The translations under genes and the position numbers were made by a program. The notes under the pieces were generated by a model that was given only the letters and a program-made list of their open reading frames with translations, was not told where the DNA came from and made no database searches. A stretch of DNA of 53,890 bases from Elusimicrobiota bacterium (GTDB lineage Bacteria; Elusimicrobiota; Elusimicrobia; UBA1565). The stretch is taken from assembly GCA_043819795.1 (NCBI GenBank), contig JBDREN010000138.1, positions 1 to 53,890 on the forward strand, written 5' to 3'. This document shows positions 2,995 through 51,633 of this stretch, piece by piece (position 1 is the stretch's first letter; each line of letters opens with the position of its first letter).

Positions 2995-4535
2995 GATTCC
3001 TCCGGGATGAGGGCGAGGGCGGCGTCCAGGAGCCGGCGAGCCGTTCCGGCGAAATCCATGCGCGCCGAGGCCGAGGCCTCCCTGGCGCGGCGGCCCATCC
3101 GCCGCAGGCCCGCGGGATCGCCGAGCATCTCCTCGAGCCCGACGGCGAGCAGACGCGGGCGCAGGCCCGCGTCTCCGTAGGGCACCGTACGCCCGTAGGA
3201 CGGGTCGAGGATCTCATCGCCCCCGTAATGGTCGCTGGCCAGGATCGGCAGGCCGGCCCGCATCGCCTCGACGATGGTCAACCCGTAGCTCTCATGCAGC
3301 GACGGCGAGACGAAGAGGTCCGCCAGACGAAAATAAGCCTGCTTCTCGACCGGAGCGAGATATCCGGGGAAGAACACCCGGAAACGCCGGAGACGCTCCG
3401 CGGCCGCCCGCACACGCCGGCCGTAGCTCTCGCCGCGCATGAAGGCGGTCTCTCCGCAGATGAAGAGGCAGACGTCCGTCGCCCGGAACCGCGGGGAGCC
3501 CTCGAGCCGCCGCAGCGCCTCCAACAGAAGATGGATCCCCTTCTCGGGCGAAATGCGGCTCAAGGTCAATACCACGCGCGAGCCGGGCCTCAGATGGTAA
3601 TGCGCCCGAAGGCGGGACGCCTCCAACGCGACCGCCTCCTCCGAGAACGACTCGCGCCAACCGCCCCAAGGCGCGATGAGGATGCGCTCCTCCAGCGGCC
3701 GCCCCCCGACGTCGTCCGGAGGCGGCACTTCCTCGCGGTTGCGCTCGGTCGGCCGCCCCCCGACGTCGTCCGGAGGCGGCACTTCCTCGCGGTTGCGCTC
3801 GGTCGGCCGCCCCCCGACGTCGTCCGGAGGCGGCACTTCCTCGCGGTTGCGCTCGGTCGGCCGTCCTCCGTCCCGCCCGCCATAGCAGCGCCGGATCGTC
3901 TCGGCCATCCGCCGGGAAGGAAGCGCGAGAACGGCGGAGCGCTCGACCACCCGCCTCTGCTTCTGAAAGACGAGCCGCAGCACGTCGGGCACGCACCGCG
4001 CCAGCCCCCACCGCTCGATGCGGGCGAAGGCGCGGGTCCAGCGCTCCGGGGCCAGGAGGCCGCCGAGATAGAGCCGGTTGAAGAAATCGACGACGTCCAC
4101 GTGCCATATCGACAGGATCCGGTACCCGGCCCCGGCGAGGCGGTCGAGGTCCGGACTCTCGGAGATATCGTTGACGATCACCGCCGTGCGCCGGGGTTCG
4201 AAGATCCGGGGGTTGTCGAGCAAGTAGGCGGTGGTCGCGGCCTCGAACCGGCGGCAGAAACGCGCGTAGCCCATCTCCGAAAGCCGCACCAGGTCGGGGG
4301 AGCCCGGCCGCGACGGAAGCTGAAGGTAGGAGACGCCCGGGCGCTCCGGGGTCGGGTCATGAGCTCCCGAGCCCAGGACGGTGAGCCGGAAGTCCCCGGA
4401 CTTCCCCCGCGACGGCGCTCCCCCCAGGCCGGCCCAATGCCGGACAAGCTGGAGCCCGACCATACCGCCCCCGCCCAGGGGGGTCCGATCCATGGGGTAT
4501 CCCAGGTGGCTCCCGATGAAGACGACGTTCCTCAT
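2991..4535 (-). CDS. Glycosyltransferase family 4 (GT-B) with in-frame tandem repeat insert
   Basis: GGG near the N-terminus, RISPEKG, ADLFVSPSLHESYGLTIVEAM (EX7E motif); start uncertain (4535/4553/4583). Confidence 0.85.
   Translation of the reverse strand: MRNVVFIGSHLGYPMDRTPLGGGGMVGLQLVRHWAGLGGAPSRGKSGDFRLTVLGSGAHDPTPERPGVSYLQLPSRPGSPDLVRLSEMGYARFCRRFEAATTAYLLDNPRIFEPRRTAVIVNDISESPDLDRLAGAGYRILSIWHVDVVDFFNRLYLGGLLAPERWTRAFARIERWGLARCVPDVLRLVFQKQRRVVERSAVLALPSRRMAETIRRCYGGRDGGRPTERNREEVPPPDDVGGRPTERNREEVPPPDDVGGRPTERNREEVPPPDDVGGRPLEERILIAPWGGWRESFSEEAVALEASRLRAHYHLRPGSRVVLTLSRISPEKGIHLLLEALRRLEGSPRFRATDVCLFICGETAFMRGESYGRRVRAAAERLRRFRVFFPGYLAPVEKQAYFRLADLFVSPSLHESYGLTIVEAMRAGLPILASDHYGGDEILDPSYGRTVPYGDAGLRPRLLAVGLEEMLGDPAGLRRMGRRAREASASARMDFAGTARRLLDAALALIPEES
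3696..3863. repeat. Three perfect tandem 54-bp repeats inside the GT4 gene (18-aa unit GGRPTERNREEVPPPDDV)
   Basis: Unit cggccgccccccgacgtcgtccggaggcggcacttcctcgcggttgcgctcggt at 3696, 3750 and 3804, plus a closing cggccg. Confidence 0.95.
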
Positions 4536-15051: not shown

Positions 15052-17373
15052 ATGAAACAGAAACTGACCCCCGTCGGAATCGCGATTCTCTCGGCGTGCG
15101 TCGCCGCCGCCCCGAACGCCCAGTGCGCCGGGGTCATCGCGGGGCAGGCCGCAAGCGCCGGACACACGGCGCCGTCCGTCGCGGTCCCGACCGTCCCGAT
15201 CCTCAAGCTCGACACCCTGGCCCTTTCCCAGGCCCCCTCGTCGCTCTCCTCCACCCTGCCGGGCATGACCATGATGTCCTACAACGCCGTGCCCCGGACG
15301 ATCCAGTCCCCGCTCGCCGCGCCCCGCGCGGCCGCCGCGAACGAGGCCTCCGCCGTCCCCGCCGCCCAGGCAGCCCCCTCCCGAGCCCCCTTGGCCCAGG
15401 CCCGGCAGGGCGTCCTCGGGACGATCAAGAAATTCGCCGCCGCGATCGCCGGCCCGAGCGCCGCCCGCGACGGGCGCATGGCCACGCACAGCCGCGCCCT
15501 CTTCGACGGAACGCTGAAGCGCGCCGCCGGCGAGGACGCCCCGACGCCGGTCCCCGCCGCCGCTCAGAGCCCCGCAGCGGTTCCGGGCAGCGCCTTGGGA
15601 CGCGCGGACCAGGACGGCGCCGACCTGGCGCGCCTCTACCCCCGGGTCGTGTTCCTTTTGGACGTCTTCAACGAGCCCGCGTCCGACAAGACCGCCCAGT
15701 ACGTCCAGAGCCTGGTCGACCACGGAGTCCACGTCGTGTTCATGACCTGGCGTTCGCAGAAGGGTCCGGGCTCCGCCGAAGAGATCCTCCTCTCGCGCGT
15801 CAAGGCCGGGCGCACCAACCCGGTCACCGTCGTCAGCCACAACGGCGCCCGCATCGCCCCCCACTCGCGCGCGAAGAACCCGGCGCCCGTAGTCGAGGAC
15901 GCCGAGTCCTTTAAGACGGAGCAGATCGAGACTTTCCGGCAGATCAACGCGAAGATCCGGGAAGCGATGTCCCTCAAGGAGCCTCTCGAGGAGCTCGGCC
16001 TCCCGGACGCCGAGAACTCATTTACCTATATAGTACGGCTGCCCGCCTCGGTCCCTGAGGACGGGGTCGCGGCCGCGCGCGGCCAGCTGACCCGCCGCTA
16101 CAACCAGCAGCTGAAGGCGGCCAATCTCCCGTTCCGCGTCTCGGCCCATTCCGGCGACGCCCGCGCGGTCATCATGCATTCGACGCCGCTGCGCTTCTCG
16201 CTGCGGCGCACCTTCGCGGCGCTCGACCAACAGTTCCGCGACGAGAACCTCTCGGACGACCCCGGCAAGTTCCTGCTCCTGACCGATACCAAGAAGTCCC
16301 CCGAGTTCTCCCGCGCGTTCCCGAAGCAGACCCAGATCCAGGCGATCCAGGACGGCGGCGGAGCCGAGAACATCCTCGGCGCGGTGCTGGGCAACAATAA
16401 GCTGCAGGCCGTCTCCGTGAAGCTCGGCAAGCTGCGGCAGTACGTAGAGTACTGGGAGCCCCGGCACCGGTACCTCCCCGCCAGCGAGGGCGCGGCCCCG
16501 GCCTCCGGCGGCTCCACCATGAGGGGCGGCGACCGCCTCTACAGCCAGAAGTTCGCGATGTTCACCGGGAGCGTGGTCTACCAGCTCATGGCCTGGTTCT
16601 ACGAGCAGGTATGGCGCGGCCAGCACAAGCTCACGCAGCTCAACCAGCTGGAGACCAAACTCCATTACATGTGGACGAAACCGCTCCAGAACGGCGTCTT
16701 CGTAAGCCAGTCGCTGGCCAAGCTCATGCGCACCCAGACCTGGAAGTCCATGAGCCCCGGCTATGAAAAGTACGCGCGCAGCTTCCTTCGCAACTTCTGG
16801 TTCCGCGAGTTCGGGAACTACAGCGCCGCCGCCAACGACGTCATGGAGAACATGGTGGGTTTGGCGACGGACCGCAAGAGCCTCATCACGCTGAACTTCG
16901 CCTCGCCCGCGACCGGCCGGATCTACAAGATCCACACCCGCATCCCCCGGCTCATGAAGCTCGACACGGCCGACGGCCGCGTGCTCACGGCCCACGGCTA
17001 CCGATCCGGCAAGGAGACCCCCGACGACGGCGAGGAGCTCTTCGCCAAGACCCTGGCCATGGCCACGCTGGTCGGCCACGGACGCAAGGGCCCGGACGGC
17101 AAGTGGCACCACGGCTCGCCGGACGGCAAGCTGATATCGAAGCTGCAGGTCCAGCTCGAGTACCGCTCGAGCCATCGCTCCTGGGTATTCAACCCCGAGG
17201 AGCTGCTCACGCTCGACGAAAACGGCCAGATCAGCCAGGGCCCGATCGTCAAGGAAATCTCCAGCACGATCGAGCGAATGGAAGCCGACGAGGAGTACCA
17301 GAAGCACGTCGCCGAGCAGGACCGCAGGGCCACGAAGGAAGACCTGAAGCCTAATAAGAGGAAGGGGGCCTGA
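15052..17373 (+). CDS. Leader-bearing protein: signal peptide + Ala/Pro linker + degenerate HAD-like domain + degenerate PD-(D/E)XK-like domain
   Basis: ATG 15052 with GAGG RBS; aligns by eye with the downstream paralog (GVHVVFMTWRSQKGPGSAEE vs GVFFVFLSDRPQDGPGSVEE; AHGYRSGK vs VVDFKSGQ). Confidence 0.7.
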   Translation: MKQKLTPVGIAILSACVAAAPNAQCAGVIAGQAASAGHTAPSVAVPTVPILKLDTLALSQAPSSLSSTLPGMTMMSYNAVPRTIQSPLAAPRAAAANEASAVPAAQAAPSRAPLAQARQGVLGTIKKFAAAIAGPSAARDGRMATHSRALFDGTLKRAAGEDAPTPVPAAAQSPAAVPGSALGRADQDGADLARLYPRVVFLLDVFNEPASDKTAQYVQSLVDHGVHVVFMTWRSQKGPGSAEEILLSRVKAGRTNPVTVVSHNGARIAPHSRAKNPAPVVEDAESFKTEQIETFRQINAKIREAMSLKEPLEELGLPDAENSFTYIVRLPASVPEDGVAAARGQLTRRYNQQLKAANLPFRVSAHSGDARAVIMHSTPLRFSLRRTFAALDQQFRDENLSDDPGKFLLLTDTKKSPEFSRAFPKQTQIQAIQDGGGAENILGAVLGNNKLQAVSVKLGKLRQYVEYWEPRHRYLPASEGAAPASGGSTMRGGDRLYSQKFAMFTGSVVYQLMAWFYEQVWRGQHKLTQLNQLETKLHYMWTKPLQNGVFVSQSLAKLMRTQTWKSMSPGYEKYARSFLRNFWFREFGNYSAAANDVMENMVGLATDRKSLITLNFASPATGRIYKIHTRIPRLMKLDTADGRVLTAHGYRSGKETPDDGEELFAKTLAMATLVGHGRKGPDGKWHHGSPDGKLISKLQVQLEYRSSHRSWVFNPEELLTLDENGQISQGPIVKEISSTIERMEADEEYQKHVAEQDRRATKEDLKPNKRKGA

Positions 17374-17375
17374 AA

Positions 17376-20063
17376 ATGATCCGCACGCTCAGACTCCTGC
17401 TCGTTTTCAGCCTCCTGGCTCCGCCGCCGGCTTGGGCCTCCGGGATCGCGCGCGTGGTTAGCGTGCGGACCTCGGTCAACGCCCCCGCCGCGACCGGAGC
17501 GGCCTCGGCCCCGGCCCTCCGACTGACCCAAGGCCAGGCCCGGACCTCGAATCTTTCCCTGGACTCCGCTCTGCCCGGCGCCAGCTCCGTGAGTCCCACG
17601 GTCTCGGCGGCCAAGCACGGCGCCCCTGCCGCGATGGCGACTCCGGCCGCGGCCAAGGCCGCGCGGCAGGCCCCGGCGGCCAGCGCCGCCGCTCCTTCGG
17701 CCAAGGCGGCCGCTCCCGTCCTCCGAGGCGAAAGCGCCCGCACGAATCTGAGCGCGGCCGCCGACCGGCGCGCCGCGGCACCGGCCTCGGCGGTCCGCCA
17801 CGCGCGCCCCGCCGACGGCTGGAGCTTCAACAGCCTGGGCAAGCTCTTCGACGGCGCGCGGCAGAGCGCGGCCTCCGGCGGCCTGCGGCCGGCCGCCGAG
17901 AACGCGGCCATAGACCACAGCGACGTCCCGACCGATCGCCCGGCCGAGCAGGAGGAGGTCACCTCCGAGATCGCCGCCGAGCCGGAGCCCGATCCGCTCG
18001 ACCTCCGTTTCAGCCGCGCCGCGAAAAAGGACATCATGGGCTCGGACGTATACGCCTCGATCCGCCTTATCAACGGGTCCGGCAGCCAGTGGTATTGGGA
18101 GCAGTTCGCGCCCGACATGCCGCTCCGCGTGCTGGTCGGCGGCAGGATGGCGTTCTTCACGCGCATCACCGGGGCGGAGACGAAGACGATCGCCTCCCTC
18201 ACCCGCAAGGATCTGGAAGGCCACTACTCCCGGGCCATCATCTACGGCACAAAGGGCAGCCAGTACCGGTATTCCGTCCCGCAGCTGCGCAAGCGGATGA
18301 TCCAGGATCTCACCAAACTCTCCGACGGGAAGCCGAACGCCCCGCGCGTGATCGGCTTGAGCACGAAGGTGCGGGTCATGCAGTTCATGCCTTACAAAGA
18401 AGCCCGCCAGCTCCCGGAGAACGAGATCGAGCCGGACATGGAGCCCCGGGTCCGCAAGCCCGTGGACATCCCCGAGTCGCTCGCCGGGCTCAAGCGCTTC
18501 CTACCGAAGGTCGTGCTCGTGGACCTCAAGCTCTTCGAGAAGGATGGAAGCATCCCCTTCGACCTGTTCGAGGATATGGGCAAGCTCATGAAGGCCGGCG
18601 TCTTCTTCGTCTTCCTCTCCGACAGGCCCCAGGACGGCCCGGGCTCGGTCGAGGAGATGATCAAGAAGGGCCTCACGCTCCGCCAGCGCGACGACGTCGT
18701 GCGCTACAAGCTGCTCAGCCTCTCCTACGGCGGCAACAGCCTCTACGAGTACCGCGGAGCTTTCTCCCGGCGCATCAGCGCGCGCCGCTTCCCCAAGGAT
18801 CAGCTCGAGATGCTCGAGCACGCGGCCCTGACCAACGGCGCGGCCAAGTCCCTCGTCTCCGAGGGCTACGAGTTCACCGCCCTTCCCAAGAAGGGCGTGG
18901 CGGCGGCGGACGTGGCCGAGGGCATGAAGCGGACTCTGGCCAAGCTCGGCGTCGGCGAGAGCGAGTACACGCTGAGCATCGGCGAGCGGGGCAAGGACCA
19001 AGCGATCACCTTCCGGCCCACGGACCTGCCCAGCGCCATCCCGCAGCTCATGGAGACTCTGCGGACCCAGAAGAGCCTTTACGTCAACAACAGCGACATG
19101 ATGGTCGTCTCCCGCGACAAGGCGATCCTCGACGCCACCGCGGGCGCGGTCCAGCCGGCGGCCGATGCCCCGAAAGCCCGGGGGGCCGACCTCGTCGAGA
19201 CCTCGCTGGCCGCCATGCTCGGCGCCTACCGGGAGAACGTCCCCGGCGACCTGGCGGCCTCGGCATCGAGCATGGCGTCATTCAAGTACAACAAGGGCGC
19301 GCCCTCAGGAAGCTTCGACTACAAGATCTACATGCTGCTCGGCCACGTCATGCACGCGGCCTTCAACTGGGCCATCTGGGTCTACCGCGACACCGGCGTT
19401 CTGCCGCCGCTCGAGGAGCTGATCGCCAAGTCGCACGAGATCTGGCGGATGGAGGACAACCAGCGCATCAAGCACCTGCTCGACCGCCCCGGCGAGTCCA
19501 CGGCCGGCTACATGGAGGCCATGGAGAAGCGCCTGCGCAGCATGCACGCGGCCACCGCGCACATCCTCGAGCGCTACCCCATCGCGGTCGGCACCGAGCT
19601 CCCGAACCTCTTCGTCCAGCAGCGCTACAAGAAGGGCGAGCGCACCCATCGCGACATCTTCCGCTTCATCTTCGACTTCGTCGTGGCCCGCGAGACCGAG
19701 GAGGGCCTCGAATTGGTGGTGGTGGACTTCAAGAGCGGCCAGACCTCCACCATGCAGACGCTCGCCAAGGACATCCAGGCGCAGCTCTACGACGTACTGG
19801 TCCGCAAGCTGTGGCCGACCCTGTCGGTGCCGTACGGGGCCAACGGCAAGCTCGCGAAGGTGGTCAAGACCGGAGTCTCCTTCATCTACCCGCCCGATGC
19901 CTACACGCCGGAGATCAACGAGTGGGACCGGGTCCGCTACGAGAAATGGCTGCGGAACATGATGAACCGGATCCGCAAGCACAAGGCAGGGCCGCCAGCG
20001 CCCAAAGCGAGGAAAACCGCGGCCGCCAAGAAAGACTCGCAAAACGTAAAGAAAAGCGGGTAA
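17376..20063 (+). CDS. Leader-bearing protein: signal peptide + linker + degenerate HAD-like domain + C-terminal RecB-like PD-(D/E)XK nuclease
   Basis: ASASSMASF, LGHVMH, GTELP, FIFDFV, VVDFKSG, QAQLY motifs in order at about 19250-19800; starts 2 nt after upstream stop. Confidence 0.75.
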   Translation: MIRTLRLLLVFSLLAPPPAWASGIARVVSVRTSVNAPAATGAASAPALRLTQGQARTSNLSLDSALPGASSVSPTVSAAKHGAPAAMATPAAAKAARQAPAASAAAPSAKAAAPVLRGESARTNLSAAADRRAAAPASAVRHARPADGWSFNSLGKLFDGARQSAASGGLRPAAENAAIDHSDVPTDRPAEQEEVTSEIAAEPEPDPLDLRFSRAAKKDIMGSDVYASIRLINGSGSQWYWEQFAPDMPLRVLVGGRMAFFTRITGAETKTIASLTRKDLEGHYSRAIIYGTKGSQYRYSVPQLRKRMIQDLTKLSDGKPNAPRVIGLSTKVRVMQFMPYKEARQLPENEIEPDMEPRVRKPVDIPESLAGLKRFLPKVVLVDLKLFEKDGSIPFDLFEDMGKLMKAGVFFVFLSDRPQDGPGSVEEMIKKGLTLRQRDDVVRYKLLSLSYGGNSLYEYRGAFSRRISARRFPKDQLEMLEHAALTNGAAKSLVSEGYEFTALPKKGVAAADVAEGMKRTLAKLGVGESEYTLSIGERGKDQAITFRPTDLPSAIPQLMETLRTQKSLYVNNSDMMVVSRDKAILDATAGAVQPAADAPKARGADLVETSLAAMLGAYRENVPGDLAASASSMASFKYNKGAPSGSFDYKIYMLLGHVMHAAFNWAIWVYRDTGVLPPLEELIAKSHEIWRMEDNQRIKHLLDRPGESTAGYMEAMEKRLRSMHAATAHILERYPIAVGTELPNLFVQQRYKKGERTHRDIFRFIFDFVVARETEEGLELVVVDFKSGQTSTMQTLAKDIQAQLYDVLVRKLWPTLSVPYGANGKLAKVVKTGVSFIYPPDAYTPEINEWDRVRYEKWLRNMMNRIRKHKAGPPAPKARKTAAAKKDSQNVKKSG

Positions 20064-20208
20064 AAACGAAACCCAGCCGCCCGGTCAGGGCTCACTACGA
20101 ACCCTTAGGACCCACATCCGCATAGGCCAAAATCCTCTCCTGCGCCGCCCCTAGGACCCAACCGCCCCCGAGAGTCGGCGGATATCCTTGTAGGGACGGA
20201 GATTATTG

Positions 20209-22689
20209 ATGGAGAGAACCCCGAAGAGGGCGTCGTCTATATTGAGGGCCATGAGCTCGGCGTTATGCGCCTCGCTCGCTCTCGCTTCGCCGGGCCCGCT
20301 GGCCGCGCGCGCCTTCGCGGGCGCCGTGCTCAGCGGAGCCGGCGCCTCCTCCGGACCCGGGGTATCACCCGTCGTGTCGTCCGTCGCGCCGCTCAAGTCC
20401 GCCCAAAGCGTTTCCGGACCCTCGCTTTCCGCCTCTCTCAGCTCGAACCTGCCCTCAAGGACCGCTCTGCCGGTCCCGGTCGCGCGCTCCCGGCCGGCGG
20501 CCTCCGCCGCGAAAGGCGCCAAGGCCGCCCGGACGATCGCCCACGCGGACCCGGCTTCGGACTCGCCCACGGCGGCCGCGAAGCCCGGTTCTACCCGCCG
20601 CTACGCCGCTGACGGATCCCGCTCCACGCGCCGCGCCGCGCGCGAAGGGTCCTTCCGGACGCTTCAGGACGGTGCCCGCGGGATCGAGCGGGCCCGCACG
20701 TCCGAGGGACGTTTCGCGGCCCTCGGGAATCTTTTCAGCGGGTCGTCGCGCCTCTCACGCGAGGCCTCTCCGCCGCAAGCGGGCGCGGGGCGCCAAGCGC
20801 CCCTCCGGCCCGGCCGCCTCGGGTTGAGCGCTCCGCGAGCCAAAAGCCGCAAGACGGCCGAGCGCCCGGCCACGGAGCGAGGCCCGCCGGCCGCCGCCAC
20901 GAAGGCCATCCTTGAAGAGATCGCCCGCGATCCCCGCGCCGCGGTGCTCATCGACTACGACAACACGCTGACCGAGCGCGGTCCCAACGGCCTCAGCCTC
21001 CCGACCCCGGGCTACATCGTCGACGAGCTGATCAAGACCCTCGAGACGGGGATGCCGGTGGCCATCGTCACCGCGCGCACCTTCGACTTTCAGCCCCCGG
21101 GGGCCACGTTCCCCGGCACGGACACGCCCCTTCCCTACGAGGTCAAGACCAAGCTGATCGACCTCATCCCGGCCGGGCTGCGCCGCAACATGTTCGTCTC
21201 GGCGGACGTGGGCGGCGAGCTGGTCGGCTTCGACGCCGACGGCAACACGGTCCGCCTCGAGGACGGCCGCTGGTCGTCCGAAGAAAAGCGCGCCATCCGA
21301 CGGGGAATGAGGTCAGCCCTCCATCAGACGGGCCTCACCGAGCGGGACGCCACCATCGTCGACAGCATGGCCTCGCAGACCGCGATCGTGTTCAAGGAGA
21401 GCGACGAGCGCGCGGCCGCGTTCGCCAAGACCCTGCAGGACGCCTTCCGGAAGAGCGGGGTGAGCATCGAGGTCCTCCACCACCGGAACTGGGTGTACTT
21501 CAGCAAGTTCACCAAGGAGGACGGCATCCGCGCGGTCTACGCGGCCATGCGGGCCCGCGGGTTCCCGGTGACCCCCGAGAACCTCCTGATCGTGGGCGAT
21601 CAGTTCCGCTCCGAGCCCGGCGTGCCCGAAGGCGGGGACGTGGCGATGGCCAGGCCTTTCCCCGCCTCCCTGATCGTCAGCGTGGGCGAGCCCGGGCAGA
21701 CCATACCGCCCAATGTCCGCCATTTTGGGATGTCCGGCCCCCGGGGCAGCCTGCGGCTCCTCGCGGCCAATAGGAAAGCCTACGCGCGCAAGCATCCCCG
21801 CGAAGTCGCCCCCGACCGAAGCCGACTGATCGCGGCCCTGGCCGGAGCGACCGCGGCGGTCGCCGTTCCCTGGCTCGTCGGACACGCGGCGGTCGCCGCC
21901 TCGGTGGGCAGCGTCGCCTTGGCCGTCATCGGCATCCCTCAGATCGTCAAGAACTTCCGCCACGGGAAGCGGGCCACCCAGGATTTGGCCATCGGCAGCT
22001 ATCTCTTATGGTTCGCGGCGGCGGCCTTCCTTACCCTGACATCGGTCCTGCGAGCCTCGAGCGTCTTCTGGATCGCGGCGAACGTGGCCGGAGTGCTCGA
22101 AAGCTTGGCGATCATCGGCCAGATCAACGCCCACCAGCGCGACCCGGGGACCTGGAGAAAGACCGTTATGACCGTCGGCGGCGTCCTGCTGCCGATGCCG
22201 CTGATCCTTTTCGGCGGCCTGCTGTCGGCCGCTGCCTGGGCTTCGGCGGCGTTCGCCGCGGCCATGGGGCTTCTGCTGGTCCTGAACGTCCCGCAGATCC
22301 GCAAGAACTACCTGCTCTGGCGCTCCGACCGGCTGGCTCCCACAGGGCTCGCCTGGGGCGCTCCGGCGCTCGTCGTTTTCGGCAGCCTGCTCCATCTCAT
22401 TCCCGCCGCGCTGGGAAGCGACGCCTTCTGGATGATCAACAGTCTGATGGCCACGGTCACGGCCGGCACCGTTCTCACGCAGATCTTCCGCCCCGGGCTC
22501 GCGAACGCCCTGCTCAAGCCGGCTATGTCGCTCTCGGACAGGATCCGCGACGCGCTTCGCCCCAAAAAGGGGAACCCGTCGCCCCCGACCGGCGAACCCG
22601 GGCACCCGGTCTTAAGGCCCAGGGCCCCGTGGGTCCAAATCCCCGCATCCGACCCCCAAATGGCCCAACCCCCCGCCCAGGAGGGCTGA
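20209..22689 (+). CDS. Leader-bearing fusion: HAD-IIB-like phosphatase + PQ-loop (SWEET-like) membrane transporter
   Basis: DYDNTL (motif I), VTAR (II), K (III), VGD...GGD (IV), then about 7 hydrophobic helices with IPQIVKN and VPQIRKN. Confidence 0.75.
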   Translation: MERTPKRASSILRAMSSALCASLALASPGPLAARAFAGAVLSGAGASSGPGVSPVVSSVAPLKSAQSVSGPSLSASLSSNLPSRTALPVPVARSRPAASAAKGAKAARTIAHADPASDSPTAAAKPGSTRRYAADGSRSTRRAAREGSFRTLQDGARGIERARTSEGRFAALGNLFSGSSRLSREASPPQAGAGRQAPLRPGRLGLSAPRAKSRKTAERPATERGPPAAATKAILEEIARDPRAAVLIDYDNTLTERGPNGLSLPTPGYIVDELIKTLETGMPVAIVTARTFDFQPPGATFPGTDTPLPYEVKTKLIDLIPAGLRRNMFVSADVGGELVGFDADGNTVRLEDGRWSSEEKRAIRRGMRSALHQTGLTERDATIVDSMASQTAIVFKESDERAAAFAKTLQDAFRKSGVSIEVLHHRNWVYFSKFTKEDGIRAVYAAMRARGFPVTPENLLIVGDQFRSEPGVPEGGDVAMARPFPASLIVSVGEPGQTIPPNVRHFGMSGPRGSLRLLAANRKAYARKHPREVAPDRSRLIAALAGATAAVAVPWLVGHAAVAASVGSVALAVIGIPQIVKNFRHGKRATQDLAIGSYLLWFAAAAFLTLTSVLRASSVFWIAANVAGVLESLAIIGQINAHQRDPGTWRKTVMTVGGVLLPMPLILFGGLLSAAAWASAAFAAAMGLLLVLNVPQIRKNYLLWRSDRLAPTGLAWGAPALVVFGSLLHLIPAALGSDAFWMINSLMATVTAGTVLTQIFRPGLANALLKPAMSLSDRIRDALRPKKGNPSPPTGEPGHPVLRPRAPWVQIPASDPQMAQPPAQEG

Positions 22690-22714: not shown

Positions 22715-25150
22715 ATGCCGAAAATGAAGGAAAGGCAAGCATTTCTATTGAGGACCTTGAGTTCTCTGCTTTGCCTTTGCCTCCTGCTGAGCTCCCCCGG
22801 CCCGCTGGCCACCCAAGCCTTCGCCAACATCATAACGCATAGCGGCAAGGTCTCGGCCGGCGTCCAGGTGGCCCCCATTCTACCGACCGTCTCACCGGTC
22901 AACTCGGCGCAGAACCTGTCCGCTCCGGCGCTCTCCATCTCTCTTAAATCGAGCCTGCCCACGACGGCCCTGCCGACCCCGATCGCCAAGTCCCCGGCCG
23001 CGCTCCGAAGCGGCGCGGTCGCGGCCGCCGCGAGGTCCGTTTTCCCGGCAGCAAAGACGGCCGCTCGCGCCGCCGAGACCCCGGCCGCATTGTCCATCCC
23101 CGGATCCCAGGCTCGCACCCCGATATCCGACAAGGCCGCACGTAGCGCGAGCGGCTACGGCGCTCCGGAGAGCGCCCGCGCTCCTCCGGCGGCGCGTCAA
23201 AGCCTCGAGACCGGCGCCCGGAATATTCAACAGGCCGCCACCCATTCAGGACGGTTCTCCTCCCTTCAGGCTCTTTTCACGGGCTCCCGCCGGTCCGGCG
23301 CGCAAGCCGTGCCGGCCGGACAGTCCGGCATCCGGAGCCTCCTGGGACGGATCTCCCGGCCGCTCTCATTGCGCCGGGCGGCGAATCCCGCCGCTCCGGA
23401 GCGGCGGGCCGAGCAAGGCGCCCGCCAGCCCCCAGCCCCCCCCTCGCGAACCGAGAAGGACGACGAGCTCTCGCCCGAGGCGCGGCGCGGGATTCTGGCC
23501 ATGTTCGCCGCGCGCTTCCCCAGCATGCTCGCCTACTCCATCTCGGCGATCTCCTATCCCCTAATCCTGATCGAAGCGGTCGGCAAGGGCGGGATGTACC
23601 AGCTGTTCTCCCTGGGCGGCCTGCTCTCGATCGGGCTGGCCCTGGTGGCGGGCAGGGTCGCGGACCGGATGCCGCTCAAGAAGTACATCGTCTTCAACAC
23701 CGCCCTCCGGGCCGTGCTGAGCTTCGCCACCGCCGGGCTCTACGCCGCGGGCCTGCTCAACTTCGGGACTTTGATGGGGCTGACCATCCTCAACGGCTGG
23801 CAGTTTACGACCCTCTTCATCACCGATCCCGCCATGATGACCGAGCTGGTCGGCGACAACCAGGCCAAGATCCGCTCGACCGAGGCGCTCCTCCGCATCG
23901 CGACCATCTTCGTCACCGTCCTGTCCGGGCTCTTCCTGGGCAAATACGTGGTCGACGCGATGGGTTTCGCTCCGACCTTCGTGATCGTCGGAATCCTTTA
24001 CGCGATCCCGGTCTGGATCCTCGGGAAGTTCTTGCCGGACATCAAGCGAAAGCTGGTCCGGAAGGCGGGGCAGGTCGCCGACAAGCTCAAGAAGCTGCCC
24101 TGGAAGAAGATCGCCCTGAATACTGCCCTGCTGGCCGGAGCCATCGGGATCTACGCCTTCGTCTGGCAGTCCCCCTTCCCGTTCATCGCCGCGGTCCTAT
24201 TCATGCTGTGGCGCTCCGCCATCTTCCAGAACGTCATCAAGAAGCACGGCCTGCTCAAACTCGCGCTCGTCTTCGTGATGCTGACCGCCATCGCCGAGAT
24301 CCCGATGCGCAACGCCGTCCTCGGGGCCCTGGCCGAAGAGACCGTGGGGCAAGCCGGCAAGGCGGCCTTCTTCGGCAATCTCCTGGCCTCCTTCTATATG
24401 GGGCAGCTGGTGACCGGGACCGGCATGCTGAGCCCTTCCATGGAGATCAATATCTCCAAGATAGGCCCATGGAAGCTCAAGTCCCCCATCCGGTTCAACC
24501 TGAAGACGACCTTGAAGTGGGTCGGCGCCGCGGGCCTGGCCGCCTGGAGCTACTTCTACGTCATCCCCAAGGGCTGGCTGGCGTCCGCGGCGGCCTCGGT
24601 GGGATTCACCGCCTTGTCGCCCGCGCTATTGACCGTGATCGGCGGGATCGCGGCGGCGGCGGCCGTATTGAAGCTCTACACGAGCGTGCATAACGCGGTC
24701 CCCAAGGTGAGCCCGCGCGCGTGGATGCGCTGGGAGATCGTGGGCCTGCTCGGCATGAGCATTCCCCTCTTCTTCTGGGGATCGCCGGCGGCGCTGTACT
24801 TGAGCCTGTTCCTCTTCGGCATGCTACATAACGCTACCGCCCGCACGATCAGCGCCACCTACGCGAGCCAAGCCAAGAAACACGCCAGCGACTCGTTCCA
24901 GTACATGATGGGCATCAAGAGTTCCTTCGTCAATATGGCGACCTCCATCGCCTACGCGATCTACGGCCTGGCCAAGACCCTGCCCGAGAAGATCTGGGGG
25001 GACCCCAACGCCTTCCCGTTCACGTGGTACGTCGTGGTGGGGATCTACGCGATCTTCGCGGTGGTCTTCTTCGCCGGCAGCCGCCACATGCCGGGCCGGG
25101 ACAAGAAAGAGGCGGTCAAGTCTTCAGCGGATCAAGCGCGCCGCGCTTGA
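22715..25150 (+). CDS. Leader-bearing MFS-like transporter
   Basis: ~245-aa leader homologous to that of 20209-22689, then >=12 hydrophobic helices with MFS motif A (AGRVADRMPLK). Confidence 0.75.
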   Translation: MPKMKERQAFLLRTLSSLLCLCLLLSSPGPLATQAFANIITHSGKVSAGVQVAPILPTVSPVNSAQNLSAPALSISLKSSLPTTALPTPIAKSPAALRSGAVAAAARSVFPAAKTAARAAETPAALSIPGSQARTPISDKAARSASGYGAPESARAPPAARQSLETGARNIQQAATHSGRFSSLQALFTGSRRSGAQAVPAGQSGIRSLLGRISRPLSLRRAANPAAPERRAEQGARQPPAPPSRTEKDDELSPEARRGILAMFAARFPSMLAYSISAISYPLILIEAVGKGGMYQLFSLGGLLSIGLALVAGRVADRMPLKKYIVFNTALRAVLSFATAGLYAAGLLNFGTLMGLTILNGWQFTTLFITDPAMMTELVGDNQAKIRSTEALLRIATIFVTVLSGLFLGKYVVDAMGFAPTFVIVGILYAIPVWILGKFLPDIKRKLVRKAGQVADKLKKLPWKKIALNTALLAGAIGIYAFVWQSPFPFIAAVLFMLWRSAIFQNVIKKHGLLKLALVFVMLTAIAEIPMRNAVLGALAEETVGQAGKAAFFGNLLASFYMGQLVTGTGMLSPSMEINISKIGPWKLKSPIRFNLKTTLKWVGAAGLAAWSYFYVIPKGWLASAAASVGFTALSPALLTVIGGIAAAAAVLKLYTSVHNAVPKVSPRAWMRWEIVGLLGMSIPLFFWGSPAALYLSLFLFGMLHNATARTISATYASQAKKHASDSFQYMMGIKSSFVNMATSIAYAIYGLAKTLPEKIWGDPNAFPFTWYVVVGIYAIFAVVFFAGSRHMPGRDKKEAVKSSADQARRA

Positions 25151-28537: not shown

Positions 28538-29236
28538 ATGCCCGAGACACCGGATGCCTCCAGCCTCGAGGCCGCCCTCAAGCTCATGGCTCCGATCATC
28601 AGCCATGAGATCCGCAATCCTCTGGCCGTGATCGGCAACTCCTCTTACTTCGTCAAGACGAAGCTCGTCCAGCTCGGCACGAAAGACGCCAAGATAGAAA
28701 AGCACCTCGGCATCATCGCCATCGAGCTCAAGCGCGCCAACGACGTCCTCTGCGAGATCCTCGCCTACGCGCGGATGAAGACCCTCTCTCTCCACCCCCT
28801 CCCGCTCAACGGCCTCGTGACCGACGGGATCAACGACCTGGAGGTCCCCGACTCCGTACGCGTGCGGGTCTCGCCCGCTCCGGAGAACCCCATCGTCCTC
28901 GCCGACGCGGAGCTCGTGTGCGCGGCCATCCGGCACGTCGTCCGCAACGCCGTGGAAGCGGCCGGCCTCACGAAAGACGGCGGCGGCGTCCAGGTCGCGA
29001 TCAAGGTCGAGGACGGGAAGTGGGGCGTGGTGGAAGTCACGGACGCCGGCGCGGGGGTCCCGCCGGAAGAGCGGGAAAAGCTTTTCACCCCCTTCCATAC
29101 GACCAGGCCCCGCGGGATCGGCCTCGGCTTGGCTTTCGCGCGCAAGGTCATCGAGAGTCTGGACGGACGCGTCGAGTTCGTGGCGCCGGACGGCCCCGGG
29201 GCGAGGTTCAGGCTGCTGCTGCCGAAGAGGCCCTGA
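28538..29236 (+). CDS. Sensor-less histidine kinase (HisKA + HATPase)
   Basis: SHEIRNPL H-box, RNAVEA N-box, D.G.G, F.PF.TT, GIGLGL. Confidence 0.85.
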   Translation: MPETPDASSLEAALKLMAPIISHEIRNPLAVIGNSSYFVKTKLVQLGTKDAKIEKHLGIIAIELKRANDVLCEILAYARMKTLSLHPLPLNGLVTDGINDLEVPDSVRVRVSPAPENPIVLADAELVCAAIRHVVRNAVEAAGLTKDGGGVQVAIKVEDGKWGVVEVTDAGAGVPPEEREKLFTPFHTTRPRGIGLGLAFARKVIESLDGRVEFVAPDGPGARFRLLLPKRP

Positions 29237-30788
29237 ACAGCCCCCCCAGCCACGACGCGAGACGCGCCAGCCGGTTCGGACGCGCCGGCTCGACATCGAG
29301 CTTCTTGAGAAAGGCCAGCGAGAGCAGGTAGGCGTTCTTGTAGTGCGGCAGGGAGAAGGACACCATCGTGTCCCGCGCGCTGTGAACGATGTCCCAGATC
29401 GTGTCGTTGGAGGCCCCGAATACCGTCATGGCCAGGATCCCCGCGCGCCGGAAGCTTGAGGAGTCGCTGTCTCCCCCCCAGAGCCGCTCCTCCCTCAGGT
29501 CCAGCCCGGTCTCCGAGGCGACCCGCCGGATCTTCTCGAGGAGCGCCTTGTCCGAGCGGTTCGGCCAGGAGAACGTCCCGTCCACGGCCAGGGTGTCGAG
29601 GTTGAGCATGGAGTCGATCCGCCCCCGCTCCTCGCGCGAGAGCCCGCGGACGTACTCCTTCGAGCCGATCAGACCCTCCTCCTCGCGCGCGAAGGCCACG
29701 AACACGTAAGTGGCGTCGGTCTCGACGTCCCTCATGGCCTGGTAAAGGTTGGTGACCATGGTCGCGCCGGTCCAGTTGTCGATGGTCCCGTGCCCGACGC
29801 CGGCCATGTCGTGATGGCCTCCCACGACGACGACCCGGTCGGTCCGGCCCTTCTTGACGACGATGATGTTGTGGCGGCCCCTGCCCGCGTCCTGGAGCCG
29901 GATCTCATCGGGAGCCGCCCCCGCTTGCTGGAAAAGCTCGACGACGACCCTCTCGCGCTCCGCGTTGGTCAGGGGGGAAAGGGCCATCTCGTCATAAAGC
30001 TCCTGGTCGTCCGGCATCGCCTGGGGAGCCTTCCTCCCCGGCTCCGGCAGCGGGACGGGCGTGGTCCGGCGCGAAGCGACGACCGCCGCGTGGCGGCCGG
30101 GCAGCAGCCGCCCCGCCGCGAACCGGCGCTCGGCGTAGCCGGCGAACTCCTCGGGAGAGAGCGGCCGGGCGGACGGGGCCGGCGCGGAGACGGCGCCGGC
30201 GGCGCGCTGGCCGTCGAAGACCGCCGCCAGAAAGCCGCGGGCGGAGGCGCCGGGCGCGACGCGGCCCAAGTCCTCGGCGAGCCGCGCCAGCAGGGGCCTG
30301 CCCTCGGCGGCCCGTCCCACGACGTCGAGCTTGCGAGCGACCGCCTTGCCGAGTTCTCCGCCCCGTGCCCCGAGCAGACGGACGGCGCGCGAGCGGCCAG
30401 CCGGATCGGCGAGCGCCCGCGCCAGGAAACGGGCCGCTTGGGCCTCCGTGGAGAGCTCGGCGGCCTCGAGGGGAGTCTCGAGCGCCGCGCGCGACAGATA
30501 CTCCGCGGCGTCAGCCCCGGAAACGTCTGCCCGGGCGGGGACCTTCGGAGCGGCCGTCGTCGGCAGCGTCGAGCCCAGCCGGAGCGAGGTCTGCTCCAGG
30601 TGCCGGTCGAGCGCCCGCAACAGTTGCGCTGAGACCGCCCCGGCCGAGGTCGCGGCCTGGCCGGGTCCGAAGTTGACCGATGGCGAGCGGACCGGGGCCC
30701 GGAACGCTCCGGCCCAACCCGAGGCCGGAAGCGCCGCGCAAAGCCATACCGCGAGCAGTCGGACGAAGAGGCGGCAGTCCATATTCAT
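29208..30788 (-). CDS. Leader-bearing M28 family metallopeptidase
   Basis: GGHHD, G.IDNWTG, REEEGLIGS, NLD, SD, HS..D motifs; signal peptide from ATG 30788/30782; leader with LGSTLP and VFDG. Confidence 0.82.
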   Translation of the reverse strand: MNMDCRLFVRLLAVWLCAALPASGWAGAFRAPVRSPSVNFGPGQAATSAGAVSAQLLRALDRHLEQTSLRLGSTLPTTAAPKVPARADVSGADAAEYLSRAALETPLEAAELSTEAQAARFLARALADPAGRSRAVRLLGARGGELGKAVARKLDVVGRAAEGRPLLARLAEDLGRVAPGASARGFLAAVFDGQRAAGAVSAPAPSARPLSPEEFAGYAERRFAAGRLLPGRHAAVVASRRTTPVPLPEPGRKAPQAMPDDQELYDEMALSPLTNAERERVVVELFQQAGAAPDEIRLQDAGRGRHNIIVVKKGRTDRVVVVGGHHDMAGVGHGTIDNWTGATMVTNLYQAMRDVETDATYVFVAFAREEEGLIGSKEYVRGLSREERGRIDSMLNLDTLAVDGTFSWPNRSDKALLEKIRRVASETGLDLREERLWGGDSDSSSFRRAGILAMTVFGASNDTIWDIVHSARDTMVSFSLPHYKNAYLLSLAFLKKLDVEPARPNRLARLASWLGGLFRASSAAAA

Positions 30789-30895
30789 CCATAGGCTAGC
30801 CGGATCCCCCTTGGGCGGGAAGCGACGAAAGGCCCATCGTCGGCCCCCCGGAAGACCCACCCGTTTATCGGCCAAAAGGCGCTTGCGGACCGGCC

Positions 30896-30924
30896 TTGAC
30901 AGCCCGACGCGCCCCCCCTATACT
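30896..30924 (+). promoter_or_regulatory. Sigma70-type promoter
   Basis: TTGACA-17 nt-TATACT; GGAGG RBS before ATG 30955. Confidence 0.75.
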
Positions 30925-30954
30925 CAGGAGCGACGTCCTTTTGGAGGGACCCCA

Positions 30955-31890
30955 ATGAGAAGACTCGTCTTGATGACAGTAGCGCTGGCGGTGATCCTGG
31001 CAGGCGCCCGCGACGCTTCCGCGGCCCCCGCGGGGGAGGCATACGAGCACGGCAATACCGAGGAAGGCAAGGCCGCATGGAAGAACGAGGTGGAGGGGCA
31101 GCCTGACGAGCCGGACGAGCCGTACACGGACCCCGGCTTGGACGAGCCCTATGCGGGGGAGAAGCGCCTGCCCGCGGACGAGGCGTTCGAGCACGCCAAT
31201 ATGGAGGAAGGGCGCGCCCACTGGAAGGAGATGTCTCCGGAGGAGAAGACCGATTATCTCAAAGAGCATCCCGACATCCAGGACCGCCTCAAGGATAAAT
31301 GGGAGAACGCCTCCAAAAAGGAAAGAAAAGCCTTCCTAAAGGAGAACCCGGACTTCGACAAGAAGGCCTTCAAGAAAAAATGGGGCGAGGCCACGCCGGA
31401 GGAGAAGGCCGCCTTCCTCGAGAACCAGCCCGCCGTCCGAGACGAGTTACAAATGAGGAGGGAACGGCTCAGAGGGCGGGGGGGCGAACAGCGGGAGCGC
31501 CACCGAGAGGACCGCGAGCGCATGGGCGAGAGCGGGGAGCGGCTCAAGGAGCGCGGGCGCGACAAACGGGAGCGTTCCGGAGAACGCCTCGAGCGCATGG
31601 GCGAGCGCCGGGAGCGCCAGGGAGACCGTCTTGAGCGGCGAGGCGAGCGCATGGAACGCCGCGGGGAGCGCATGGAGCGACGAGGAGAGCGCCTCGGAGA
31701 GCAGGGCCGCGAAGGCACGGGCAAGCGCCTTGAGCGCGAAGGCAAAAGGATGCAGAAACGCGGAGACCGTCTCGAGCGAAAGGGCGAGCGCCGGGGGCGC
31801 CGCGGGGAGCGCATGGAGCGCCGCGGGGAGCGCATGCAGCGCCCCGGCGGCAAGCCGGGCCCCGGCAGGCGCGGCCGCGGCGGAAAATAA
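30955..31890 (+). CDS. Exported repeat protein (three W..xxEE/K..FL.ENP repeats and about a dozen GERMERR heptads)
   Basis: Signal peptide MRRLVLMTVALAVILAGARDASA; promoter and RBS; highly charged repeats. Confidence 0.8.
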   Translation: MRRLVLMTVALAVILAGARDASAAPAGEAYEHGNTEEGKAAWKNEVEGQPDEPDEPYTDPGLDEPYAGEKRLPADEAFEHANMEEGRAHWKEMSPEEKTDYLKEHPDIQDRLKDKWENASKKERKAFLKENPDFDKKAFKKKWGEATPEEKAAFLENQPAVRDELQMRRERLRGRGGEQRERHREDRERMGESGERLKERGRDKRERSGERLERMGERRERQGDRLERRGERMERRGERMERRGERLGEQGREGTGKRLEREGKRMQKRGDRLERKGERRGRRGERMERRGERMQRPGGKPGPGRRGRGGK

Positions 31891-38078: not shown

Positions 38079-38267
38079 CCCGCGTCCCTCCCCCGCGGGG
38101 AGGGATGCGTAAGTGGTGGGGGCCAGCCCGCGTCCCTCCCCCACGGGGAGGGATGCGTAAGTGGTGGGGGCCAGCCCGCGTCCCTCCCCCGCGGGGAGGG
38201 ATGCGCCTGTGGGGGGGGCCAGCCCGCGTCCCTCCCCCACGGGGAGGGATGCGTAGGTAGTGGGGGC
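38079..38267. repeat. Four tandem 48-bp REP-like palindromic units
   Basis: Units at 38079, 38127, 38175, 38223, each with stem cgcgtccctcccc/ggggagggatgcg and a near-identical linker. Confidence 0.92.

Positions 38268-49047: not shown

Positions 49048-51633
<2,586 letters not shown>

Follow-up and report, generated by a model that had tools for sequence, protein, structure and literature searches.

The A/B gene pair and its domains

The 53,890-nucleotide stretch analysed here, contig JBDREN010000138.1 of the Elusimicrobiota bacterium assembly GCA_043819795.1 (hereafter the window), contains a pair of open reading frames (ORFs), termed ORF A and ORF B, which share a strand, are separated by 2 nt and encode proteins with export-type N-termini, HAD-IIB folds and nuclease folds of the RecB type (Table 1). 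The pair is divergent from clpC and lies ~25 kb from dnaA in a genome with a G+C content of 67%, and a search of this genome returned no second copy of either ORF. No promoter or terminator signal exceeding chance was detected within the pair. Profile-profile comparison of A with B using hhalign gave a match of 98.6% (E 9e-16) over 392 columns spanning both shared domains, and BLASTP aligned the two proteins across the start of the HAD region with an E value of 8e-6. By these sequence comparisons the similarity is beyond chance and the two ORFs are paralogues. An earlier note on this DNA had described two collinear, paralogous ORFs 2 nt apart; coordinates, strand and profile match agree with that description, and the motifs it quoted were all recovered in place, including the D784 and K786 codons at 19725 and 19731.

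Table 1. Coordinates of the A/B pair, its domains and neighbouring leader-bearing genes in the window (rmsd, root mean square deviation; aa, amino acids)
Feature	Position	Strand	Details
ORF A	15052-17373	+	773 aa; signal peptide, Ala/Pro-rich leader, likely pseudo-HAD-IIB, inactivated RecB-type nuclease fold
A signal peptide and leader	15052-15624	+	signal ~residues 1-26; FDG motif F151-G153, 15502-15510
A HAD-IIB fold with C2 cap	15625-16398	+	residues 192-449; 4bnd_B Z 17.0, rmsd 3.7, 225 aligned
A nuclease-like domain without metal ligands	16402-17325	+	residues 451-758; matches AdnA (9np6_A) and ACE1 (9iab_B); A-specific hairpin 674-693
ORF B	17376-20063	+	895 aa; signal peptide, leader, ASCH, likely pseudo-HAD-IIB, intact RecB/AdnA-type nuclease, Lys-rich tail
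B signal peptide and leader	17376-17987	+	signal ~residues 1-21, PAWA cleavage-type site; FDG motif F158-G160, 17847-17855
B ASCH (PUA-like) domain	17988-18410	+	residues 205-345; net +12; YqfB catalytic Lys lacking
B HAD-IIB fold	18498-19235	+	4bnd_B Z 14.7, rmsd 4.8, 210 aligned
B PD-(D/E)XK nuclease	19239-19994	+	Pfam; AdnA 9np6_A Z 16.9, rmsd 3.1, 209 aligned
B catalytic codons	H660 19353, E741 19596, D767 19674, D784 19725, K786 19731, Q801 19776, Y805 19788	+	
Leader-class intact HAD-IIB (DxDxT) with PQ-loop (SemiSWEET-like) membrane domain	20206-22689	+	phosphatase-transporter fusion
MFS-like transporter, leader class	22715-25150	+	cleavable-type signal, 240-residue leader
Leader-bearing M28 peptidase	29208-30875		relatives directly upstream of A in 8/21 loci elsewhere

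The C-terminal domain of B, in an AlphaFold model with a predicted local distance difference test (pLDDT) score of 91.1, displays a PD-(D/E)XK fold closest to AdnA, followed by ACE1, Dna2, AddB and RecE, and its sequence matches Pfam PDDEXK_1 (31.2 bits, cut-off 22). Residues H660, E741, D767, D784, K786, Q801 and Y805 are invariant in 80/80 aligned B proteins, which comprise all matches from one homologue search (41-100% identity). The same set is kept in 19 of 20 more diverse loci, which were drawn from the same collection as the 42 named loci described below and are not independent of them; the exception is a fused protein in which the Lys is replaced by Arg. By modelled fold and conserved residues B is thus a RecB-family nuclease, with the D...D-x-K...QxxxY site and a motif-I His, as the earlier note had read from its RecB/AddB-type motifs. 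A restriction-endonuclease-like fold was found at the C-terminus of both ORFs.

The corresponding domain of A (AlphaFold model, pLDDT 88.5) is most similar to AdnA (9np6_A; Z 11.7, rmsd 6.1 over 215 aligned residues), ACE1 (9iab_B; Z 11.6, rmsd 5.5 over 218 aligned residues, Foldseek E 8e-6) and Dna2 (Z 10.1); scans of A against Pfam, NCBIfam and PADLOC returned no match. P632, G649 and R651 of A occupy the positions of D767, D784 and K786 of B. All 75 A proteins aligned have Pro at the D767 position and Arg at the K786 position, with Ala, Gly, Ser or Val at the D784 position. In a diverse set of 27 A-type domains, the first Asp of the PD motif persists in 12 (seven duplicated copies and five divergent members), which supports a nuclease ancestry for A, and the second Asp and the Lys of D-x-K are present in 0/27. 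The claim that all catalytic residues of the first ORF are replaced therefore holds for this A but not for those 12 domains. A retains invariant arginines (R462, R633 and R651, with R630 in 74/75), which indicates strong constraint and probable binding of nucleic acid. An A-type fragment lacking the metal ligands, including the hairpin predicted to dock on B, also forms the C-terminus of an FDG-leader protein with helical repeats (P0195).

The HAD-IIB-like regions that had been recognised in both ORFs adopt C2-capped folds. Like the HAD-IIB phosphatases and mutases (alpha-PGM 4bnd, PMM 6i5x, ISN1; Z 14-17) and the pseudo-phosphatase domain of the trehalose synthase regulatory protein (5hus), they comprise a Rossmannoid core and a C2 cap, but motifs I, III and IV are broken in A and B, and the domains are fused to a nuclease fold. 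In A, the five-residue DxDxT stretch of motif I is missing when compared with the intact leader-bearing HAD-IIB protein P0221 of the same lineage, and the motif-III Lys is gone; T232 and the invariant R234 are kept. In B, D383 (79/79) and the motif-II Ser/Thr (S415, 80/80) are kept, the second Asp position is Arg or Lys (basic at 385), and the motif-III Lys and motif-IV acid pair are absent. Full DxD survives in 5 of 20 divergent B relatives, still without the motif-III Lys and motif-IV acid pair, so that the earlier statement that both regions lack DxD is true of this pair and not of all its relatives. Neither protein matched a HAD family of Pfam or NCBIfam. Because motifs I, III and IV are broken, the HAD parts of A and B are likely pseudo-phosphatases. 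The A profile matches P0221 with 94.9% probability, against 2% for the B profile, so that only A links to P0221, which is itself related to the gene at 20206-22689 (E 5e-12). These leader-bearing HADs are the nearest intact relatives, and the HAD parts of A and B would be traceable by sequence to an intact HAD-IIB of the P0221 kind. The 20206-22689 product is likely related to this ancestor; it is not a fixed member of the pair.

B contains, in addition, an N-terminal ASCH domain that the earlier domain list had missed, while its HAD and nuclease domains were borne out. The assignment is based on folds and on a forced alignment to YqfB: residues 205-345 match 1t62_B (Z 10.9, rmsd 4.4, 134 aligned), 3s9x_A (Z 10.0, rmsd 3.1, 121 aligned) and YqfB (9kyf_A; Z 9.7, rmsd 2.8, 100 aligned), and the region reaches a TM score of 0.69, normalised by target, with a viral ASCH protein. 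Profile comparison with YqfB gave no signal, and an ESM Atlas search with residues 205-345 gave no usable match, the ESM model being poor (pLDDT 0.49). The amidohydrolase active set of YqfB is described as a Lys21-Thr24-Glu74 triad plus Arg26 in the available text of PMC6972931. In the forced alignment the Lys21 position of B is L, V, I, T or Q in 77/77 proteins and the Arg26 position is Arg in 41/77; B thus shares the ASCH fold of YqfB but is not a YqfB-type hydrolase. Because the Lys21 position is hydrophobic in this alignment, the domain is read as a probable binding module, and it displays a conserved S-x-W-Y-W patch (S237 in 75/77, W241 in 76/77).

Conservation of the pair and the predicted A-B complex

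Named homologues of A and B are nearly all from Elusimicrobiota and essentially from one order; L102, a named carrier, is assigned to order UBA1565 in the available text of 10.1101/2022.07.08.499144. Of 301 genomes sampled across the phylum, 21 matched the B nuclease, 20 of which belong to this order; the two largest sampled families gave 0/88 and 0/89. Among 41 related genomes, an identical set of 25 matches both A and B, counting one (G035) whose A match is the HAD of B itself at a contig end and three in which A and B lie on separate contigs. At 35 of 42 named loci A immediately precedes B, which in the other seven lies within 1.4 kb of a contig end, and a single locus encodes an A-B fusion, which corresponds to the conserved adjacency that the earlier note had proposed to check and does not fit homologues that routinely occur alone. 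Conservation is higher in A, with a mean pair identity of 0.45 against 0.43 in B over 39 pairs, and the pair identities of the two correlate (r 0.98). Trees of these pairs have 23 of 36 splits in common, and 20 of 26 well-supported A splits recur in the B tree. This pattern suggests that A and B co-descend, although kinship alone can give such agreement. Duplication of A in one frame, seen at 7/42 loci, hints at an A2B stoichiometry. The tandem duplication arose at least twice independently, as a recent near-identical pair in P0158 and as an old divergent A' in several genomes.

No SF1-type P-loop was found in the long ORFs of the 42 loci and no helicase lies beside the pair, and the N-terminal parts of A and B fold as HAD and ASCH domains, in agreement with the earlier claim that no helicase domain is present. 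A leader-bearing SF1B helicase (G000:C192) was considered as a motor acting in trans and rejected as a rule: SF1B helicase matches occur in 36 of 41 genomes, mostly as frames of ~630-690 aa that are leaderless in the eight inspected, and long or leader-bearing copies are restricted to a handful of genomes. A fixed third partner was likewise rejected, as the downstream MFS gene matches 19/41 genomes in a pattern unlike that of the pair. The genes most often found next to the pair are relatives of leader-class transporter genes such as this one.

A complex of B 205-872 with A 446-759, from which the HAD domain of A was left out, scored 0.77, 0.71 and 0.00 in three runs (median 0.71), against 0.00 for the best of three controls; of 157 solved complexes, 116 attained the score mark, as did 2 of 215 mismatched pairs. 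Agreement between the runs was at least 0% of contacts, with a partner pLDDT of at least 67. The modelled contact is nuclease-to-nuclease and involves residues 707-722, 789-796 and 840-846 of B with residues 521-526 and 595-613 and the A-specific hairpin 674-693 of A. Residues 789-796 of B constitute the loop directly after K786, and the catalytic residues of B are not among the contacts. A and B are thus predicted to bind via their nuclease domains, the outcome of a complex prediction that the earlier note had suggested for the pair. A sequence search of solved structures with either alignment returned 0 matches at E up to 1.

Export signals and the FDG leader class

Both proteins begin with an export-type signal peptide by simple rules, which upholds the claim that the pair is exported at the level of sequence. 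The N-termini of homologues display a basic n-region followed by an uncharged stretch with a median of 16 residues in A and 12 in B, reaching at least 19 in 1/128. An AxA-like site is present in 108 of the 128 full-length homologues (53 A, 55 B) and a lipobox in 1/67 A and 0/61 B proteins; residues 13-16 of this A, LSAC, resemble a lipobox. Apart from the signal, neither A nor B showed a membrane helix. This signal pattern argues for cleavage over tethering.

The signal is followed by a leader of 100-200 residues rich in Ala, Pro, Ser and Gly, with an FDG motif in 60/67 A and 49/61 B homologues. A crude ORF caller gave 2,348 ORFs of at least 250 aa in the genome, and 60 of these were placed in this leader class, 24 of them with the FDG motif, and where the motif matched in a leader at least half A/P/S/G a signal was present in 19 cases and absent in 0. 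Setting aside 14 doubtful members by eye left 46. Cysteine is strongly depleted, at 0.16 per 100 residues in all 60 and 0.04 in the 46, against 0.97 and 1.08 in other ORFs. The cores of the pair hold 2 Cys in 42,156 A residues and 0 in 53,366 B residues, consistent with the earlier remark that Cas4-type Fe-S cysteines are lacking. Helicase copies of the leader type have 0 Cys in 4/4 (one cut by a contig end), whereas leaderless relatives have 1-5 in 8/8; the leaderless helicase paralogue has 4 Cys, and the leader-bearing Lon has 0 against 5 in the ordinary Lon. Pfam matches were obtained for 23 of 41 leader ORFs scanned, mostly to hydrolases and transporters, with 18/41 giving no match. The cargoes include proteases (M16, M28, M48, M50, S8, CAAX, Lon), other enzymes (two amylases, a glucoamylase, PLD, an HD domain of HD-GYP type, ABC1 kinase, nucleotidyltransferases, ATP-grasp and the SF1 helicase) and membrane proteins (MFS, ABC, SDF, MscS), and many of them need ATP or cytoplasmic substrates. 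At the 42 loci, 118 of 225 long ORFs are leader-like with at most one Cys, the pair included. The pair, first pictured as standing alone, thus belongs to a genome-wide leader class and appears to be one cargo of a larger export system.

The MFS-like protein of the window has no helix between its signal and its first membrane span, and its central loop is strongly basic; this charge pattern would put its N-terminus at the cytoplasmic face, contrary to the signal, and suits normal insertion in the inner membrane of the producer poorly. The genome, in which pilus, type II and Tad-like loci exist, gave at least four matches to secretins and 13 to pilus/type II ATPases, together with two weak ATP/ADP-translocase matches. 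Locus L160 (G000:C216:21600-41500) is Tad/Flp-like, with a small pilin-like ORF, a secretin and an ATPase, and its contig also holds two leader-class proteases.

Relation to known systems and competing explanations

RecB-family nucleases are cytoplasmic enzymes of repair, recombination or defence. In RecBCD, as described in the available text of PMC1185551, a dead PD-(D/E)XK domain of RecC without metal ligands guides the single strand, and the paralogous RecB is active. The A/B pair likewise comprises paralogous subunits, one with a predicted active and one with an inactivated PD-(D/E)XK domain, but it has neither SF1 helicase domains nor RecD, carries HAD-IIB folds in place of the motors, and adds export signals and an ASCH domain. 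Having no motors, it is not a RecBCD, AddAB or AdnAB complex and by analogy would work most like a motorless RecB/RecC. Because the same genome encodes its own AddAB-like pair, A/B does not appear to be the housekeeping repair nuclease. The best structural matches of B, AdnA and AddB (9np6 Z 16.9, 6ppu 15.2, 3u44 12.7) and ACE1 (9iab 13.8), share its D-DxK triad and QxxxY. ACE1 is described as lacking a helicase and cutting only single-stranded DNA threaded through a channel (PMC12094033, in the text available). In contrast with these proteins, B has no Fe-S cysteines and no Argonaute or helicase partner, bears an export signal and is accompanied by an inactivated paralogue; with no such cysteines, the pair is not of the Cas4/ACE1 type. 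The Bdellovibrio nucleases Bd0934 and Bd3507, thought to digest prey nucleic acid according to the available text of PMC7925074, also have signal peptides, whereas the dead partner and the shared leader are, as far as that description goes, features of the A/B pair only.

The explanation that we favour, and to which we give an even chance of being correct, is that A and B form a single exported enzyme whose role is to degrade foreign nucleic acid, in single-stranded form, beyond the cytoplasm of the producer. The two proteins would be exported via Sec, then fold and pair. By analogy with AdnA and ACE1, B would thread and cut single strands in a narrow channel, with the ASCH and dead HAD domains holding the substrate. 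A would play the part of RecC: its non-catalytic, basic and conserved domain would bind a strand or guide it, and would brace the loop right after the D-x-K of B, so that the pair could work without an ATP motor. With less assurance, the target may be nucleic acid, either DNA or RNA, from prey or from imported material, with the other leader-tagged hydrolases acting alongside, and the cytoplasm of a neighbour and a periplasmic compartment of the producer are about equally probable as the site of digestion. Folds, residue patterns, gene order, the fusion, signal-type N-termini, cysteine loss and leader-class membership are established here, binding is modelled, and activity, substrate, location and predation are inferred. 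More tentatively, and with some doubt, the pair may be cargo of an undescribed delivery system of free-living Elusimicrobiota in which dozens of cysteine-free versions of cytoplasmic enzymes and transporters, bearing a Sec signal and a disordered FDG leader, enter prey or a digestive compartment and dismantle prey from inside. A motorless RecBC-like machine would then cut prey nucleic acid through B, with dead HAD and nuclease domains guiding strands or sensing arrival.

Several observations weigh against this explanation. Signal peptides were judged by simple rules in 67 full-length A and 61 full-length B homologues. The queries used found neither a type VI secretion sheath nor a type III secretion/flagellar export gate in this 90%-complete genome, and none of the pilus, type II and Tad-like loci checked could be tied to the leader as a second-step export route. 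One of the three complex runs scored 0.00, the solved RecB/RecC and AdnA/AdnB folds may help the complex score, and interface conservation is barely raised (A 0.78 against 0.72 for the rest; B 0.65 against 0.71). The A-type nuclease fragment occurs in the unrelated architecture of P0195. Lastly, a literature search found no paper showing predation in this order. Apart from these points, the literature searched gave no paper on the A/B pair or the FDG leader. The available text of an Elusimicrobia genome preprint (10.1101/765248) has 0 matches to secretion, signal peptide, predation, pili or nuclease, and that of 10.1101/2023.11.21.568195 discusses predation for Omnitrophota and mentions Elusimicrobiota for giant genes only. 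If the favoured explanation holds, the pair, assembled from ASCH, dead-phosphatase and dead-nuclease parts, would represent a second, independent invention of the active-plus-dead design of RecB/RecC, without motors. It would also make a clean enzyme/pseudoenzyme system ready for expression and assay. The pair further gives access to how a large, uncultured order lives: the leader and the loss of cysteine common to its proteases, amylases, Lon, a helicase and transporters suggest an undescribed export route and possibly predation, a lifestyle with which so large a set of tagged enzymes would be compatible.

Among the competing explanations, residence of the pair in the envelope, periplasmic or membrane-tethered, with processing of DNA imported through type IV pili for transformation or feeding, is unlikely. 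The secretin and pilus/type II ATPase matches and the LSAC of this A are consistent with it, and the weak ATP/ADP-translocase matches could feed ATP-using periplasmic cargo. Tethering is opposed, however, by the lack of a membrane helix past the signal and the near absence of lipoboxes and anchor-length stretches among homologues, and the neighbours are leader-class rather than competence genes; the untethered periplasmic form overlaps with the favoured explanation. Somewhat less probable still is that the dead HADs sense metabolites and switch the nuclease on where cytoplasmic nucleotide or sugar phosphate is present, as in the gating suggested by the earlier note; this mechanism could be combined with the other explanations. 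The nearest folds are sugar-phosphate and IMP enzymes, and the residues retained (D383 and S415 in B, T232 and R234 in A) or gained (basic 385 in B) would suit a ligand site, but motif I is partly deleted, and conservation in A and B is lowest in the caps, the elements by which HAD-IIB enzymes choose their substrate.

We regard as quite improbable an arrangement in which B would be the effector, a toxic nuclease, and A would keep it off until delivery as an immunity protein or inhibitor. A always accompanies B, the two are co-exported and the predicted contact takes in the loop right after K786, yet A and B are fused in one lineage, A evolves slowly and co-descends with B, orphan copies and cassette arrays are absent, and the catalytic residues of B lie outside the modelled contact list. 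A variable tip, a cognate variable immunity gene and orphan cassettes, the traits of toxin-immunity systems, were not found, and the architecture is fixed. A Sec substrate would not fold beside the chromosome of its own cell, which also counts against immunity. The immunity-like role that the earlier note had allowed for A is thus disfavoured, by the fusion, the strong conservation and the position of the catalytic residues, while its exported heterodimer of active enzyme and pseudo-enzyme fits the folds, paralogy, adjacency, signals and predicted contact. There is similarly little likelihood of a modification-dependent or anti-phage nuclease in which the ASCH domain reads a modified base and licenses cutting. 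B does share an N-terminal PUA-like and a C-terminal PD-(D/E)XK domain with the PUA-superfamily modification-dependent enzymes described in the available text of PMC6765204, and the S-x-W-Y-W patch would suit a reader. In B, however, a HAD domain separates reader and nuclease, the nuclease has the RecB-type fold of channel-type single-strand enzymes rather than a restriction-enzyme fold, and an export signal is present; PADLOC gave no match for five proteins tested, descent is vertical, and the pair sits in the core chromosome, with clpC on one side and the dnaA region on the other, and not in a defence island.

Elsewhere in the window, gyrA is broken into two frames, at 49134-49958 and 49531-51633, by an assembly error or a frameshift. 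Tandem repeats are located at 3696-3870 (54 bp, 3.2 copies, 98%) and, just upstream of ptsI, at 38079-38267 (48 bp, 3.9 copies, 91%). A signal-peptide protein encoded on the minus strand at ~30900-31890 displays a long Glu/Arg-rich repeat tail built from 21- and 42-bp units.

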